A DNA stretch of 64,000 nt from Escherichia coli. GTDB lineage: Bacteria; Pseudomonadota; Gammaproteobacteria; Enterobacterales; Enterobacteriaceae. A model generated the notes under the pieces. It was given only the letters and a program-made list of their open reading frames with translations, did no database searches and was not told where the DNA came from. A program made the position numbers and the translations under genes. Position 1 is the first letter of the stretch. Each line of letters opens with the position of its first letter. Shown here piece by piece: positions 9,017 through 60,659 of this stretch. Location: the NCBI RefSeq assembly GCF_003018255.1, contig NZ_CP027440.1; one strand, written 5' to 3'.

Positions 9017-9472
<456 letters not shown>

Positions 9473-20830: not shown

Positions 20831-22300
20831 TCATTTCCCCTTCACTGTTGTTTCCGGGGAAATATTTGCTTCATCCCGATATAAGTAGGCACTCTCCCCT
20901 GCCACCTGCCAGAGATGTACTAACGTTGAAAAGCCAACAACACCGTCAGTTTTCAAGTGGTGGCTTTTTTGAAATTGCTTTATTTTTTCTACCAACAAGG
21001 GACGCCACTCTGCCGAAGGTTCTGTCGAAATATGCAATGCGCGGTTTAACATCGTTTCCAGCCAGAGAATCTCTTCCTCGCTGCTATCACGCGTAATGGT
21101 ACTCTCCCCTTCCGGCGACATTTTCCATAACAGAAGATAATCACCCGTCCATACCGACTCAAACCATTGATGTGTCAGCGTCCAGGTTTGCTGCCCTACG
21201 AGGACATCAACGGTAGCATCACCGACGCGAACGACCACAACAGGCAATTTTTTGTCCCCGACTTTAAGCGATGCGATCCAGGGCAAATTCTGATCTACCA
21301 ATGTTTGTAAAGAAGCATTCCCACTTTTACATGCCAGCCCCGCTCTTACTGCCTGATCGCACCAGGCCGAATCAGCTGGGACCTCGTACCCCCATACGCC
21401 GTATAACACGCTTAGCGCCTCACTATCGCGCATCACTACATGAGCAATATCCTTAGTCATATCTTGTTTAACTACTGGCGTTACGGGTACCAGCCACGCA
21501 GGAACGGGGAACGGATCTGTGAAAGAGGACAGCAGTAGCCAACCACAGGTAAGTGCGATAATGGTTCCACTCATCACCACGGCAAGCTGCATTTTCCGGG
21601 GGCGGTTATCACCTAATACGCGGTAAATCATTCGCCAATGTTTTGCAGTGAAAACGCTGGTCTGCTCGGCTTGCTGTAATAAGCTAATTGTTTCGCCGGC
21701 AAGCGCCAGCTTTCTGCGATCTCCCCGACATAATAAAGCTATCCGTTTCAGAACTCTGGCAGTTAAAAGGAGATCGGGCTGGTCAATATTCTGACCTTCA
21801 AGGATGCTTGCCTTAAGCTCGTGCTCCATCAGACGTCCTGTTGAGACAAGTTCAATGCCCTGTTTTTTAAAATCACGTTCGACTTTTCGATCGGGTCTGC
21901 CGATCAGCAAAAATTGACCGTCAGGAATAAGAGATATCGCGCGTTGGAGATCATCAAGTATGCGGCGGTGATTCAGGTGAGCATTTTCAATAATAATAAG
22001 AGGGCAGCGACTATCAGTTCGATGAAGCGCATGCAGTAATTGACCCGCCATCTCATCTCGCGTCCAGGCGCTGTCACGGCAGCCCTGTTCAGCCGCATTA
22101 TCGTCGGTAACGATCCATGCGGCCTTACCTTGCGAGGAAACAACGAGGCTTAAAGTAATCACACGGCGATGTTTATCTTTTTGTAGTTGCTGCGCCAGCC
22201 AGGTTTTTCCACTTCCAGCCTCACCCAACAAATAGCACAGACGCCAGGTCTGACGTTTCTCACGCAACCAGGAAAGAATAACTTCTCTTCTCGTAGACAT
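20831..22300 (-). CDS. gspA: Type II secretion accessory ATPase GspA
   Basis: ORF track 489 aa; Walker A GEAGSGKT near the N-terminus. Confidence 0.9.
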   Translation of the reverse strand: MSTRREVILSWLREKRQTWRLCYLLGEAGSGKTWLAQQLQKDKHRRVITLSLVVSSQGKAAWIVTDDNAAEQGCRDSAWTRDEMAGQLLHALHRTDSRCPLIIIENAHLNHRRILDDLQRAISLIPDGQFLLIGRPDRKVERDFKKQGIELVSTGRLMEHELKASILEGQNIDQPDLLLTARVLKRIALLCRGDRRKLALAGETISLLQQAEQTSVFTAKHWRMIYRVLGDNRPRKMQLAVVMSGTIIALTCGWLLLSSFTDPFPVPAWLVPVTPVVKQDMTKDIAHVVMRDSEALSVLYGVWGYEVPADSAWCDQAVRAGLACKSGNASLQTLVDQNLPWIASLKVGDKKLPVVVVRVGDATVDVLVGQQTWTLTHQWFESVWTGDYLLLWKMSPEGESTITRDSSEEEILWLETMLNRALHISTEPSAEWRPLLVEKIKQFQKSHHLKTDGVVGFSTLVHLWQVAGESAYLYRDEANISPETTVKGK

Positions 22301-34061: not shown

Positions 34062-36764
34062 TTATTGCTTAGTAAACGGCGCGAAGATTTCGCTAAATGC
34101 GTACTTCGGTGCCTGTTCTTTAGTCAGGCCGTGGAATTCCGGAGACAGGTTAGTGCCGCCTGGCAGGTCGCGCGCGATTGACCAGATACCAACCATACCG
34201 AGATTACGCTTCTGCGCATCCTGCATGACCAGACGAGCATCAGAGAGATAGAACACCTCGCCCTGAACGTCGTTCACGCCAACCATCGGCGTGGTACCCA
34301 TCATAGCGTCAATTTCTGCATCGCTCTTATTGGGATGGAGGCCTTTCAATTGTGAATGCAGGTTGGCAATCGCAGACGTTGCACACTTACCGTGAATGTT
34401 CTGGCCTTCGGTATTTGCAGACTGACAAATCGCGTTACCGTAGTCCATTGTCATCACGTTCACACCCGCCAGCTCAACACCTTTCGCTTTGGCATCGCTC
34501 AGGACATTCATCCCTTCCGGCGTCAGGCCAGTCGGCAGAATTGGCAAGGTGTACCAGATAGCAATATCTTTGCCCTCTGACTTCCATTTATCCTGCACTT
34601 TCTTCACAGCAAGGTTACGACGTTCAATAGATGCCTGATCCGCAACCCAGGTGCCTTCGATATCGAAGTCCAGGACTCTGAGGTTCAGGTTATCAACGAT
34701 GTCATAATAATGCTGCATCAGATCGTCTACGTTCTTACAGGAAGCAGCCAGCGGAGCGTTGTTAGCACCACCGATAGACAGCATCACATCGCCGCCAGCT
34801 TCACGCAGAGCTTTGATTTTGCTGTACTGAGCGTAATTCTGCATACCGTAAGCGGTACCCCATGTCGGCAGACAGGTGTTCGCATCTTTACTCACCACAA
34901 ACGCCAGCGTGAAGTGGTTGACGTTATGATTCTTAGCCAGCGCAGCCAGATCCGGGATCGTATTCAGCGTAAAGTCAACATACGGTGCATAAACGTGTTT
35001 CGGCCACGCTTTCTTCGGCGTACCTACACGTTCTTTGGTTCCGGTCCAGTCAACAAAAACACGCCACGGGTTGCTGTCAGAAGGAGAAACTTTCTGCACT
35101 TTACTCTGAGAAATGTAGTTCGCACCGTTAAAGCGAATCAGCGTATCGCTGGCATAAAGCGTTTCTGGATTAAACTGCGGCGCATTATTCAGCTCTTCGT
35201 TGCTATAGCTCTGAGCCTTACCTAACGGCTTCCACGGGCGGCTATTGCTACCGGTGGCGTTTTGGTTCGCAACCAGAGCAGGGTTGTCGCTTTGCGTCCA
35301 GAACAGCGCTTCATAAGCCTGCCCATCAACAACAACGCGATCACCTTTCACGTACACGGTGGAAGCGGACCATGCTTTCGCCGGTTCGTATTTCTTCCAC
35401 GGGTTATCGCCGCCCGGGACAAAGCCCCATGCGTCTTGATCGACAGAGGTTTTATAATGTGCATCGTTATAATCTACGATGCTGTTCGCGCTGTACGCTT
35501 TGCTGGCCTGGAAACCATCCGCAACAATGACGCCGCCATTATCAATTTCACAGGTAGTTGGGTTACCGTACTGACTCATTTCCGCAGCGGTAGCTGTACG
35601 CACGAGACGCCATGGGTTATTGGAGTTTTCTGCACTAGTGCCACGTGGGCAATCTTCAGAACCAACCCACCAGGCATTCTGATAAACATTACCATTGAAG
35701 ATAACATGGTAAATTTCGCTACCTTCCTGGCCACTCCACGCCTGCAGTGAGTAATCGTTACTGCTATCCGCTGGTGTTGATGGCTCGTTATTATCCGGAG
35801 TAGGAGTAACTGGAGTTACCGGTGTTTCCGGAGTTGGATCAACCGGAGTCACAGCACCGCTATTATTATCCGGCTTAACGGAACAGGAACCCGGATTACC
35901 ATACTGGCTGATTTCTGTTGCCGTTGCCGCGCGAACATAACGCCATGGGTTGCTGGCATCGTTTTCTTTCGCATCGCCTGGGCAATTTGCCGCGCCTACC
36001 CACCAGGCGTTCTTATAAATGCCGCCGTTGTAGATAACGTACCATGTAGAAGAACCTTCCTGACCTTTCCAGGCTACGACAGCATAGTTGTCGTTTGACT
36101 TATCAGCTGGAGCTGGCTGAACATCAGGAGCCGGTTTAACGTCCGGTGCCGGTTTCACATCCGGCGCAGGCTGTGGTGCTGAAGTACAGGACTGTGGATT
36201 ACTGGTTTCTGAGATTTCCGTTGCCGTAGCGGCACGAACATAACGCCATGGGTTGCTGGCATCATTGCCTTTCGCATCACCCGGGCAGTTAGAAGAGGCT
36301 ACCCACCAGGCATTTTTATATACCGCACCATTAAAGACGACATACCAGGTCTGACCGCCCTGCTGTTTATTCCAGGCAACTACAGAAGAATTAGACGGAA
36401 CAGTGCCCTGTGCTGGTGTAGCCGAACCGCCATTAGCCGGCGTATTGGATGCAGGCGTATTTGAATTTGAAGAAGATGAGCTGCCGCTCTTTTCGCAGGA
36501 AAGTGTATTGCCAAACTGACTAATTTCAGCAGCTGTCGCGGTACGCTTTAAACGCCATGGGTTAGTTGCATCATTTGCTTTTGCTTTTCCCGGGCAATTT
36601 GTAGAAGAAACCCACCAGGCATTTTCATAAATTTTGCCATCGAAAATAACCTGATATTTATTACCACCTTGTTGGTTATTCCATACTTCCATTGCCAATG
36701 CTGGCAGAGCGGAACACACCAGCCCCATACCAATCATAGATTTAGTAAATATATTTAATTTCAT
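34062..36764 (-). CDS. chiA: Periplasmic/secreted endochitinase with four N-terminal chitin-binding-type modules
   Basis: ORF track 900 aa; signal peptide; four repeated ~65-aa W/C-rich modules (NAWWV...CPG...NPWR), Pro/Thr linkers, C-terminal catalytic domain. Confidence 0.92.
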   Translation of the reverse strand: MKLNIFTKSMIGMGLVCSALPALAMEVWNNQQGGNKYQVIFDGKIYENAWWVSSTNCPGKAKANDATNPWRLKRTATAAEISQFGNTLSCEKSGSSSSSNSNTPASNTPANGGSATPAQGTVPSNSSVVAWNKQQGGQTWYVVFNGAVYKNAWWVASSNCPGDAKGNDASNPWRYVRAATATEISETSNPQSCTSAPQPAPDVKPAPDVKPAPDVQPAPADKSNDNYAVVAWKGQEGSSTWYVIYNGGIYKNAWWVGAANCPGDAKENDASNPWRYVRAATATEISQYGNPGSCSVKPDNNSGAVTPVDPTPETPVTPVTPTPDNNEPSTPADSSNDYSLQAWSGQEGSEIYHVIFNGNVYQNAWWVGSEDCPRGTSAENSNNPWRLVRTATAAEMSQYGNPTTCEIDNGGVIVADGFQASKAYSANSIVDYNDAHYKTSVDQDAWGFVPGGDNPWKKYEPAKAWSASTVYVKGDRVVVDGQAYEALFWTQSDNPALVANQNATGSNSRPWKPLGKAQSYSNEELNNAPQFNPETLYASDTLIRFNGANYISQSKVQKVSPSDSNPWRVFVDWTGTKERVGTPKKAWPKHVYAPYVDFTLNTIPDLAALAKNHNVNHFTLAFVVSKDANTCLPTWGTAYGMQNYAQYSKIKALREAGGDVMLSIGGANNAPLAASCKNVDDLMQHYYDIVDNLNLRVLDFDIEGTWVADQASIERRNLAVKKVQDKWKSEGKDIAIWYTLPILPTGLTPEGMNVLSDAKAKGVELAGVNVMTMDYGNAICQSANTEGQNIHGKCATSAIANLHSQLKGLHPNKSDAEIDAMMGTTPMVGVNDVQGEVFYLSDARLVMQDAQKRNLGMVGIWSIARDLPGGTNLSPEFHGLTKEQAPKYAFSEIFAPFTKQ
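35549..36689 (-). repeat. Intragenic tandem module repeats in chiA (~310-bp period) plus PAPDVK x3 micro-repeat
   Basis: Near-identical DNA stretches, e.g. gcgaacataacgccatgggttgctggcatc at ~35925 and gcacgaacataacgccatgggttgctggcatc at ~36235; PAPDVKPAPDVKPAPDV encoded at ~36115-36170. Confidence 0.8.
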
Positions 36765-55866: not shown

Positions 55867-57105
<1,239 letters not shown>

Positions 57106-57175
57106 TTACGCATAAACCAATGTGAAATTATAATCACAAAATATGCATAAAAAATCACTTAATAGCAATCAGAAA

Positions 57176-57739
57176 TCAGCGATGCAGGAAATTAGCCAGC
57201 AGTTGATGTCCTTGTTCGCTGAGAATACTTTCTGGATGGAACTGCACGCCTTCCAGATCCCACTGGCGATGGCGAATCCCCATAATCTCGCGGGTTTCGC
57301 TCCAGGCCGTCACTTCAAAGCACGCTGGTAATGAGTCAGGTTCCACCACCAGCGAATGGTAGCGTGTCACGGTAAGTGGATTTGCCAGCCCCCGAAATAC
57401 GCCCACACCGTTATGTATAATCGGCGAGGTTTTGCCGTGCATGACCTTTGCGGCGCGCACAACTTTGCCGCCAAATGCCTGCGCCATTGCCTGATGACCG
57501 AGGCAGACGCCAAGAATCGGCAAGCACCCGGCATAGTTGCGAATAACGTCAAGGGAGATCCCGGCTTCATCTGGCGTACAGGGTCCGGGTGAGATGACAA
57601 TTTTTTGTGGTTTAAGGGCGTCGATATCCGCCAGCGTCAACGCATCGTTGCGCTTAACCAGCACATCCGCCCCCAGTTCACAAAAGTACTGGTAGAGGTT
57701 CCAGGTAAAAGAATCGTAGTTATCAATAAGCAGGATCAT
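57176..57739 (-). CDS. pabA: Aminodeoxychorismate synthase glutamine amidotransferase subunit
   Basis: ORF track 187 aa; class-I GATase with catalytic Cys in GVCLGHQ. Confidence 0.95.
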
Positions 57740-57770
57740 GGCGGCTCCGGTACGAAAGAACCGCGCTATT

Positions 57771-58373
57771 TTACTCAGATTCCCCGGCTTCGCTTACCAC
57801 TTTGCTAAATATCATCTGCAGCGCGGTGAGATCCCCCATTGCCCCACTCTGATTTGCCTGATTCCAGGCCTCTTTTTCGATACCCTGCCAGCTCAGTTGG
57901 TAGCCCGCATGAATCGCCAGCTGCTCGAAGAAGATCCGCTGTGCCAGTCCGCTTCCCACACGGAAGGGATGCAGCACGTTGATTTCACAATAGTAATGCG
58001 CCAGCCGCTCGACGAACTTCGCTTTCTCCAGGCCAACCAGATAACCTTCTTCCTCCAGATCCTGCATCAGGGCATTGCCCTCTTTTTCGATATAAGCAAA
58101 GTGGCAGAACGGCGTATCACCCTGATAAATATCAACTTCACGCAGTTGCCCCGCCCAGTCGAAAATATCCTGATACAGCTGGCGATGGATAGTGCGCAAA
58201 TGCGGTAAACCGCGCACCAGCGGACCAAGCTCAATGGTCGCAGCACGTAGCGCCGTCATTTCGTAAGCGGCCTGTTCCAGCCGCTGTTGCTGGCGGATGT
58301 TCAGCCGGTTACGCATGATATCAAGGCCAGGATAAAGATACGGATCGCGCCCTTCGCCGAATTTATCGCTCAT
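57771..58373 (-). CDS. fic: Fic-domain protein
   Basis: ORF track 200 aa; FIC motif region reads [12 protein letters not shown]. Confidence 0.93.
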
Positions 58374-58530
58374 AGTGCCTCCTCAGCTCTTCAAGGCGCG
58401 CTAAAGCCTCTGCGGCAGTAAGAGTGACTAAAGGCATCTCGACGCCTTCAAGACGGCGACTGGCCTGGAAATTACGATTACGCTGAAGCTCCCAGAGACG
58501 GGACTTTTGCTTATCGGTGAGTTTCTTCAC
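58363..58530 (-). CDS. yhfG: Small protein YhfG (putative Fic-inhibitory antitoxin-like partner)
   Basis: 55-codon minus ORF below track cut-off, read by hand ([55 protein letters not shown]); GTG start with GGGAGG SD 7 nt upstream; stop overlaps fic start. Confidence 0.8.
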
Positions 58531-58634
58531 TTGATGCCTCCCTGAACGTGTCCATTTGCCACAAGTATAAGCGGCAAATCCGGGTTACGCCGGGAGAGCA
58601 GAAGCGCGGGCAAGATTGCCCGCGCGAGAAATCA

Positions 58635-59216
<582 letters not shown>

Positions 59217-59477
59217 TTAACAAACAGAGCAGAAAAAAAGCAAGTGAAGAGATTCTAAATAGCCTTCAAGAACAAGGCCATCCCTTTACCTAATTTTACG
59301 TATCTGAAATATATGTAACCTGACGATCACTTTTTATTCTGTGATCAAAATCACCTCTTAAAATGCAATTTAGCAACCGATTGCAATAAAACATTTAATC
59401 AGATCACAAAATCACCTAAAATCGCCCGCTCGCGGCATAGCCCGCTATGCCATTTTATTTTTGAACGCAGGCCAATC

Positions 59478-60659
59478 ATGACTAACAGCAATCGCATCAA
59501 GCTCACATGGATTAGCTTTCTCTCCTACGCACTGACTGGTGCGTTGGTTATTGTCACCGGGATGGTGATGGGAAATATCGCCGATTATTTCAATCTGCCT
59601 GTTTCCAGTATGAGTAACACCTTCACCTTCCTCAACGCCGGCATTTTAATCTCTATCTTCCTCAACGCCTGGCTGATGGAAATCGTCCCGTTGAAAACGC
59701 AGTTACGTTTTGGCTTTCTCCTGATGGTGCTGGCGGTTGCCGGTTTGATGTTCAGCCACAGCCTGGCGCTGTTCTCGGCGGCGATGTTCATTCTCGGAGT
59801 GGTCAGCGGCATCACCATGTCGATTGGTACATTCCTGATAACACAAATGTATGAAGGGCGTCAGCGCGGTTCCCGCCTGTTATTTACCGACTCCTTCTTC
59901 AGTATGGCCGGGATGATTTTCCCAATGATCGCCGCGTTTCTACTGGCGCGCAGCATTGAGTGGTACTGGGTTTATGCCTGCATCGGGTTGGTGTATGTCG
60001 CTATTTTTATTCTGACCTTCGGCTGTGAGTTCCCGGCGCTGGGCAAACATGCGCCAAAAACGGATGCTCCGGTAGAGAAAGAAAAGTGGGGGATCGGCGT
60101 GCTGTTTCTCTCCATTGCGGCACTGTGCTACATCCTCGGTCAGTTAGGTTTTATCTCCTGGGTGCCGGAGTATGCCAAAGGCCTGGGCATGAGCCTGAAC
60201 GACGCGGGCACGCTGGTGAGTAACTTCTGGATGTCATATATGGTCGGCATGTGGGCGTTCAGCTTTATTCTTCGCTTCTTTGATTTGCAACGTATTCTGA
60301 CCGTACTGGCTGGTCTGGCTGCGATTCTGATGTACGTCTTTAACACCGGAACACCAGCACATATGGCGTGGTCAATTCTCGCTCTGGGCTTCTTCTCCAG
60401 CGCGATCTATACCACCATCATCACCCTGGGTTCACAGCAAACCAAAGTACCGTCGCCAAAACTGGTTAACTTTGTCCTGACCTGCGGGACCATCGGTACT
60501 ATGTTGACCTTTGTGGTTACCGGCCCGATTGTTGAACATAGCGGTCCGCAGGCGGCACTGCTTACAGCAAACGGTCTGTACGCTGTCGTCTTTGTGATGT
60601 GCTTCCTGTTAGGTTTCGTCAGCCGTCACCGTCAGCATAACACCCTGACCTCTCATTAA
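59478..60659 (+). CDS. tsgA: MFS-type transporter TsgA
   Basis: ORF track 393 aa; 12-TM hydrophobic profile. Confidence 0.9.

Follow-up and report, generated by a model that had tools for sequence, protein, structure and literature searches.

The question raised by the yhfG-fic locus is whether the Fic protein of Escherichia coli, the founding member of the FIC family, still acts as an enzyme, given that its own signature motif departs from the family consensus and that an antitoxin-like ORF lies directly upstream of it. A first-pass annotation, made from the sequence of the window (the whole 64-kb stretch of DNA that was analyzed), had pointed out both of these features, described the gene architecture as toxin-antitoxin-like and left the activity of Fic open, which was appropriate for a judgment from sequence alone.

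Identity and layout of the locus

The locus comprises the following features:

57771..58373, minus strand: fic (EcFicT), an ORF of 200 aa with an ATG start, encoding a FIC-domain protein (RefSeq name fic)
58363..58530, minus strand: yhfG (EcFicA), an ORF of 55 aa with a GTG start, encoding a FicA-type antitoxin homologue
58363..58373, minus strand: 11-nt overlap of the 3' end of yhfG and the 5' end of fic, from the ORF coordinates
57936..57971, minus strand: FIC signature loop, Fic residues 135-146, with E changed to V139, N to S141 and R1 to L143
58444..58461, minus strand: inhibitory-helix motif SRRLEG, YhfG residues 24-29, with the DNA reading AGT CGC CGT CTT GAA GGC

Profile searches with Fic recovered the Pfam family PF02661 (Fic/DOC) at 52.5 bits (cut-off 24; E = 9e-14) over residues 58-152 and the NCBIfam model NF007672 at 430 bits against a cut-off of 181, while YhfG matched Pfam PF10832 (YhfG; E = 1.6e-24) and NCBIfam NF007573; both NCBIfam models are equivalogs made for precisely these E. 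coli proteins. Fic is identical to PDB chain 5JFZ_A at 198 of 200 positions, the differences being H27R and S2G, of which the latter looks like a change in the expression construct and not natural variation, and YhfG is identical to chain 5JFF_B at 54 of 55 positions, differing by S51R. These Pfam, NCBIfam and PDB matches bear out the names fic and yhfG given in the first-pass annotation. The locus is the chromosomal fic-yhfG (EcFicT-EcFicA) pair of E. coli, sharing with that of K-12 its position, signature motif, SRRLEG segment and the neighbors ppiA and pabA, and showing only allelic differences from it (Fic H27R, YhfG S51R). The RefSeq annotation of the region likewise lists pabA, fic, yhfG and ppiA. 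The 64-kb window as a whole is collinear with, and 99.5% identical to, E. coli 2014C-3338, and its genes extend from dprA/def over the ribosomal protein operons, gsp, tufA, crp and pabA-fic as far as nirBD.

The yhfG stop had been described as overlapping the fic ATG; instead the two ORFs overlap by 11 nt, with the yhfG stop codon TAA at 58365..58363 located 5 nt downstream of the fic ATG at 58373..58371. This overlap suggests that yhfG and fic are translationally coupled. The remainder of the earlier description of yhfG, namely 55 codons, a GTG start and a strong Shine-Dalgarno sequence (GGGAGG, 6 nt before the GTG), agrees with the DNA. Rfam and tRNA scans gave no match at or near the yhfG-fic locus.

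A signature loop lacking three canonical residues

Read directly from the DNA, Fic codons 135-146 are CAT CCC TTC CGT GTG GGA AGC GGA CTG GCA CAG CGG. The register of the motif was set by ungapped alignment to the AMPylase Fic-1 (PDB 8WT0, motif HPFREGNGRAQR) and also to VbhT. A comparison with the consensus HxFx(D/E)GNGRxxR, position by position and across the 113 full-length close homologues described below, showed that: 1) the catalytic histidine is present as His135, in 113 of 113 homologues. 2) The acidic Mg2+ ligand at motif position 5 is replaced by Val139, with L, I, V or F in the clade. 3) The asparagine at motif position 7 is replaced by Ser141, the clade having S in 69 and N in 44 sequences. 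4) R1, which binds the β-phosphate of ATP, is replaced by Leu143, with L, M or I in the clade. 5) R2 is retained as the invariant Arg146, and Phe137, Gly140 and Gly142 of the motif are kept as well. At three of the five signature positions by which the canonical AMPylating enzymes are recognized, Fic departs from them, and these are the acidic, asparagine and first arginine positions that the first-pass annotation had singled out as degenerate.

The protein also scores far below the cut-offs of the NCBIfam equivalogs for VbhT (138 against 800 bits) and NmFic (66 against 230 bits). Nor does it carry the motif of a Doc-type kinase, for Gly142 is retained and there is no lysine. All the features of the EcFicT-like subgroup 3 (Stanger 2016) are found in it: hydrophobic residues at R1 and at the D/E position, together with A36, T40, Y67 and F71, which are conserved in 110-113 of the 113 homologues, and a syntenic chromosomal position. 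Fic belongs to the FIC domain family, to class I on the grounds of architecture and structure, and to the EcFicT-like subgroup 3.

The inhibitory helix of YhfG and the published complex

The SRRLEG motif alone is weak evidence, because 3.3% of shuffled 55-mers with the composition of YhfG contain [ST]xxxE[GN] by chance; the assignment is made secure by family membership and the solved structures. Stanger, Harms, Dehio and Schirmer (PLoS One 2016, PMC5033356) renamed the pair EcFicT/EcFicA, identified YhfG as a homologue of class I FicA antitoxins and determined the crystal structures 5JFF and 5JFZ; these structures and the published assays concern proteins that differ by 1-2 residues from those of the window. 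Fic and YhfG associate in a stable 1:1 complex with a Tm of 63 C and an interface of 1641 A2, in which the SRRLEG segment juts into the Fic active site and S24 and E28 of YhfG bind R146 (R2) of Fic, the latter contact being a Glu28-Arg146 salt bridge, and the E28G exchange lowers the Tm by 10 C (PMC5033356). Both hallmarks of class I Fic systems are accordingly present, the small separate upstream ORF with (S/T)xxxE(G/N) in yhfG itself, and the complex with a salt bridge between the inhibitory glutamate and R2 by virtue of the identity of the two proteins to the 5JFF/5JFZ chains. The earlier reading of SRRLEG as the class I inhibitory-helix motif is upheld by the Pfam YhfG match and by these contacts, and the structure of the complex, which had been proposed as a check, was already solved.

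Among 120 YhfG homologues 105 sequences were tallied, of which 94 have SRRLEG and the others variants that occur singly or in pairs; most of the 15 untallied sequences also have SRRLEG by reading, with three SCRLEG and one GRRLEG. The YhfG family (PF10832) also provides the partners of canonical FicT proteins.

As stated in PMC5033356 with reference to Harms et al. (2015, Cell Rep), auto- and target-AMPylation were undetectable, even with YhfG E28G, and, per the literature cited there, fic in the absence of yhfG is reported to give neither AMP transfer to gyrase or topoisomerase IV nor growth arrest. To the extent of that citation, the AMPylation assay with and without an E-to-G mutant that the first-pass annotation suggested is already in print, with a negative outcome. 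The same paper described the degenerate signature motif, saw in the replacement of R1 by L143 the principal reason why ATP should not bind, delineated a clade-specific extended hydrophobic pocket formed by A36, T40, Y67, F71 and V139, and documented vertical inheritance and synteny in Enterobacteriaceae, the synteny and phylogeny being shown in its S3 and S4 Figs. It further reported that a knock-out of fic is viable and shows no distinct phenotype, and that the structures give no explanation for the filamentation phenotype of G55R (fic-1). A paper of June 2026 still calls the biochemical mechanism "elusive" (PMC13327609). The degenerate motif, the inhibitory motif of YhfG, the complex and the negative AMPylation result were all published by 2016; in these points the present finding adds nothing beyond the structural paper of that year and does not advance the role of the founding Fic protein.

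Conservation and selection in the enterobacterial clade

We collected 120 close Fic homologues at 79% identity or more, 113 of them full-length. All 120 display a motif of the HPFR[LIVF]G[SN]G[LMI][AV]QR type. Across the 113 full-length sequences Y12, T40, G55, Y67, F71, E79, Y83, H135, P136, F137, G140, G142, Q145 and R146 are invariant, variation being seen at positions 139 (L/I/V/F), 141 (S/N) and 143 (L/M/I), and a single homologue has C at R138. Because 92 of the 200 positions show no variation in the sampled clade, the invariance of His135 is not strong proof of catalysis. An exhaustive HMMER search covered 1.84 billion proteins as 50%-identity representatives, and of the best 150 representatives 112 are strictly canonical (H.F.[DE]GNGR..R), while eight, none of them below 68% identity to the query, possess the hydrophobic-substituted motif, and the remaining 30 are fragments or single-position variants. 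The motif state shows a sharp break, relatives at 48% identity or below being mostly canonical and many of them located on plasmids. The substitutions at the Mg ligand (V/L/I/F), the asparagine (S/N) and R1 (L/M/I) define a single, vertically inherited enterobacterial clade.

Comparison with Salmonella, Klebsiella and Leclercia by the Nei-Gojobori method gave dN/dS values of 0.05-0.09 for fic, 0.07-0.09 for yhfG and 0.06-0.09 for pabA, which are approximate as dS is saturated (>1). Both fic and yhfG are under strong purifying selection, equal to that on pabA. The possibility that the pair is a decaying toxin-antitoxin remnant on its way to becoming a pseudogene, which the departure of the motif from the consensus might suggest, is ruled out by these values, obtained across genera with saturated synonymous sites, and by the integrity of the ORFs in 5425 of 5426 genomes; moreover, four other genera or species have the same length, the same overlap and the same synteny. 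Rather than decay, the substituted motif represents a state that defines the clade and is conserved and selected.

Distribution and relatives elsewhere

Searched with a 1.1-kb query spanning the locus, 5425 of 5426 complete E. coli genomes gave a match. The median is a single copy per genome, and of the 5428 places matched only one does not lie on a chromosome. Salmonella, two Klebsiella species and Leclercia have the same order, tsgA-ppiA-yhfG-fic-pabA-argD, and also share the 11-nt yhfG/fic overlap and a fic-pabA spacing of 31-32 nt. The patchy, mobile distribution of type II toxin-antitoxin systems is not what we find here; the pair is a single-copy, chromosomal component of the core genome. 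The first-pass description of the locus as toxin-antitoxin-like stands for its architecture and ancestry and does not extend to its behavior, considering the vertical inheritance in the core genome and the reported viability of the fic knock-out.

In the plasmid collection, most of the matches at 69% identity or more fall in very large records resembling chromosomal sequence that was filed as plasmids, including three multi-megabase E. coli records; one is an 11-kb record whose sequence is identical to that of E. coli, and all other matches there are below 60% identity. Two relatives below 50% identity were examined, both canonical and one of them a plasmid record. The nearest canonical relatives occur in mobile contexts, each with its own SxxxEG partner: one on a contig carrying Toprim/DUF3991 and AbiEii genes, a second adjoining a HigB-like gene and a third on a conjugative plasmid of Acinetobacter beside a HipA toxin-antitoxin pair, the antitoxins of the second and third being YhfG-family proteins.

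Expression signals

The sequences flanking the two ORFs contain the following features:

58378..58383, minus strand: Shine-Dalgarno sequence AGGAGG of fic, within yhfG, 4 nt before the ATG
58537..58542, minus strand: Shine-Dalgarno sequence GGGAGG of yhfG, 6 nt before the GTG
58564..58569, minus strand: -10 hexamer TATACT, assigned to the sigma-S fic promoter, which is without a -35 element; located by eye
58604..58625, minus strand: GC-rich hairpin GCGCGGGC / GCCCGCGC after ppiA, read from the DNA
57740..57770, minus strand: fic-pabA spacer of 31 nt, covered by the terminator scan

TATACT is the -10 element given for the fic promoter (Utsumi 1993) in Table 2 of PMC5650638, and we infer that the hexamer of the window is this published sigma-S element; it is kept in a divergent relative (L008). 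In O157:H7, yhfG-fic is among the RpoS-dependent genes (PMC2907692). A sigma-70 promoter scan of 57100..59500 made no call upstream of yhfG, as expected since the published sigma-S promoter lacks a -35 element. The hairpin is probably the terminator of ppiA and would set that gene apart from the yhfG-fic promoter; its absence from the output of the terminator scan is accounted for by the lack of a T-run. Downstream of fic, the terminator scan of 57100..59500 detected no minus-strand terminator before pabA, and transcription is hence likely to read through from yhfG-fic into pabA. Tran and Nichols are said to have described fic-pabA co-transcription in 1991. Our literature search for a link between fic and PABA or folate synthesis brought up nothing usable, the sole trace being an entry 'Fic (PABA or folate)' in a table of PMC5650638, and we read no more than likely co-transcription into the fic-pabA adjacency. 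A Mol Cell 2019 article was discarded, since 'FIC' there denotes the fractional inhibitory concentration.

Comparison with characterized Fic systems

VbhT/VbhA of Bartonella schoenbuchensis, a class I FicTA pair, resembles the E. coli pair in the fold of the Fic protein, in the small upstream antitoxin with (S/T)xxxE(G/N) and in the glutamate of VbhA, which, like that of YhfG, forms a salt bridge with R2. However, VbhT, at about 33% identity, has the canonical HPFREGNGRxxR and is an active, toxic AMPylase of GyrB/ParE carried on a mobile element, and the helices number three in VbhA and two in YhfG. Of the solved relatives whose activity is known, the closest is Fic-1/AntF of Pseudomonas bijieensis 2P24 (PDB 8WT0, PMC13327609). 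Fic aligns to Fic-1 with 39% identity over 196 residues and no gaps, such that H135, R138 and R146 have the same numbering in both, and AntF shares Ser24 and Glu28 with YhfG. Unlike EcFicT, which has V139, S141 and L143 and is without the acidic residues at 29 and 36, Fic-1 possesses E139, N141, R143, E29 and E36. Fic-1 AMPylates Y111 of GyrB, and its complex with AntF removes the modification (PMC13327609). Doc/Phd of phage P1 and AnkX illustrate that a variant FIC motif may go with another transferred group, phosphate and phosphocholine respectively (PMC5033356). EcFicT matches neither of them: the Doc motif HxFx(D/N)(A/G)NKR has a lysine for the second glycine and no R2, and AnkX keeps R1, whereas EcFicT keeps Gly142 and R2 and has lost R1.

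Possible activities of the Fic-YhfG pair

We propose that the yhfG-fic operon, a class I FicTA module, has been domesticated, being fixed in the core genome between ppiA and pabA under a sigma-S promoter. In the crystal structures YhfG wraps around Fic, with the end of its SRRLEG helix entering the active site, where Ser24 and Glu28 clamp Arg146. The retention of the histidine base, the phosphate-binding loop, R2 and the hydrophobic pocket (A36, T40, Y67, F71, V139) suggests that Fic may still be an enzyme, re-tooled to use a donor other than ATP, whose phosphate-linked group it would pass to some target docked on the flap, and YhfG would gate access to the site. We give this whole package, a re-tooled FIC enzyme with a non-ATP donor and YhfG as its gate, a probability of about 0.6, most of the uncertainty being carried by the step that Fic is still catalytic, for which residue conservation is the sole argument. 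Against the re-tooled enzyme, variation within the clade at the three substituted positions might just as well signify that the chemistry has been lost, and the fic knock-out is viable with no clear phenotype (PMC5033356).

A rival reading is that of a pseudoenzyme, in which catalysis would be gone and the Fic-YhfG pair would only bind, as a stationary-phase scaffold or regulator. Three catalytic or substrate-binding positions have indeed been lost and drift among similar residues in the clade, forty years of work have found no activity, and strong purifying selection fits a binding role equally well. Yet none of the 113 homologues departs from His135, the two anion-nest glycines, R2 or the pocket residues T40, Y67 and F71, and the Ser/Glu plug of YhfG is conserved, though a pure binder has no obvious need of a conserved plug on a dead site; we consider the pseudoenzyme unlikely. 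A conventional FicTA toxin-antitoxin system, with free Fic AMPylating GyrB/ParE as do VbhT and Fic-1 and YhfG neutralizing it, is suggested by the class I architecture (small upstream SxxxEG ORF, overlapping genes), by the match of the fold and the mode of complex formation to VbhTA and Fic-1-AntF, and by the 39% ungapped identity to a GyrB AMPylase. Against this, R1, the acidic Mg ligand and, in E. coli, the asparagine are replaced, the locus belongs to the vertically inherited core genome and is not mobile, the scores fall far short of the VbhT and NmFic cut-offs, and adenylylation was not found even with YhfG E28G, going by the account in PMC5033356, such that free Fic is very improbable as a toxin of this kind.

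The conserved plug is open to yet another interpretation, by which the Fic-YhfG holo-complex would be an obligate two-subunit enzyme with Glu28 of YhfG as a catalytic residue, an 'eraser' hydrolase of a nucleotidyl or phospho modification that might possibly reverse the modifications made by incoming plasmid FicT toxins. Its model is Fic-1-AntF, which deAMPylates GyrB and needs E28 of AntF to do so (PMC13327609), and the role of the inhibitory glutamate of FICD and EfFic in hydrolysis is comparable. If true, such an eraser would account for the retention of S24 and E28 of YhfG and of H135 and R146 of Fic after the loss of the ATP-binding residues with which the glutamate competes. The complex is very stable, its genes appear translationally coupled, and plasmids in circulation carry canonical FicT toxins together with YhfG-family partners. 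However, deAMPylation by Fic-1-AntF requires a divalent metal as well as a negative patch made up of E29, E36 and E139 of Fic-1 and E28 of AntF (PMC13327609), and with Q29, A36 and V139 at these places EcFicT is missing the metal site and most of the patch. We have down-weighted deAMPylation of the Fic-1-AntF type because of these replacements, and regard the eraser as distinctly unlikely. The re-tooled enzyme remains our preferred reading of the locus.

For the E. coli-type clade 'putative adenosine monophosphate-protein transferase Fic', the product name used by RefSeq, is probably a misnomer; in the two cases examined, the same name is given to a degenerate chromosomal Fic and to a canonical plasmid FicT.

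Apparent single-chain and fused forms of YhfG and Fic

In a locus from the Logan contig ERR4228981_3458 (L008), where ppiA and pabA lie on either side in the syntenic positions, YhfG and Fic sequences occur together in a single open reading frame:

L008:1011-1613, YhfG/Fic hybrid ORF, 200 aa

This protein, which was found in one sample only, is composed of YhfG residues 1 to ~29, followed in the same reading frame by Fic from approximately residue 31, with the junction falling in the 'RLE/RLD' stretch that is common to the two proteins. The SxxxEG motif of YhfG is replaced by SSRLDI. The sequence of the FIC motif is HPFFVGSGRAQR, in which the first arginine is retained and both the acidic residue and the asparagine are lost. 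Either a natural deletion produced a single-chain, class II-like Fic, or the hybrid is a chimera introduced by assembly.

Two further in-frame YhfG-Fic fusions were observed in Logan assemblies, both with sequences identical to those of E. coli. The first of these (P0001; 252 aa, 15 member sequences) reads '...LEELRVTMSDKF...', and this sequence implies a frameshift within the 11-nt overlap of yhfG and fic. The second (P0005; 233 aa) carries an internal deletion. These fusions could be rare but natural, or they could stem from constructs or from errors in sequencing.

Motif degeneration and product naming

Degeneration of the FIC motif is also seen outside the enterobacterial clade: a longer and more distant Fic protein (P0236; 511 aa, 36% identity to Fic) displays the motif HPFRRGNGLAIR, an independent instance in which the first arginine is substituted by leucine and the acidic residue by arginine. 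RefSeq/PGAP labels the chromosomal protein with the degenerate motif 'putative adenosine monophosphate-protein transferase Fic', and uses the identical product name for a FicT with the canonical motif encoded on an Acinetobacter conjugative plasmid. According to the literature, no AMPylation by the degenerate-motif chromosomal Fic is detectable.

Suspect database records

Two of the Fic homologues (P0129 and P0125) show R to C, P to L or F, H to Y and A to V replacements throughout when compared to Klebsiella pneumoniae or E. coli sequence, and look like translations of C-to-T-converted (bisulfite-like) or error-laden reads rather than true variants. In the PLSDB record NZ_CP069919.1, an 11,338-bp 'Klebsiella oxytoca plasmid', the fic-yhfG pair is 100% identical in protein sequence to the E. 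coli allele, whereas Fic proteins of the K. oxytoca group are ~84% identical; contamination or misassembly is likely. The fic-yhfG matches in PLSDB also include several very large 'plasmid' records, of which three multi-megabase E. coli records and one 5.4-Mb K. pneumoniae record look like misfiled chromosomes.

Other features of the window

9341..9452, minus strand, Alpha_RBS element (Rfam, 102.7 bits), heading the rpsM-rpsK-rpsD-rpoA-rplQ operon
20831..22300, minus strand, gspA, intact ORF, 489 aa
32445..33122, plus strand, gspO, intact ORF, 225 aa
35910..36017 and 36213..36320, two direct repeats of 108 bp each within chiA, 84% identical and ~300 bp apart

In E. coli 2014C-3338, which is otherwise 99.5% identical, the annotation lists both gspA and gspO as pseudogenes interrupted by internal stops. 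For the repeats in chiA, duplication of a chitin-binding domain module is the most likely explanation. The Alpha_RBS element is an ordinary, expected feature of its operon.
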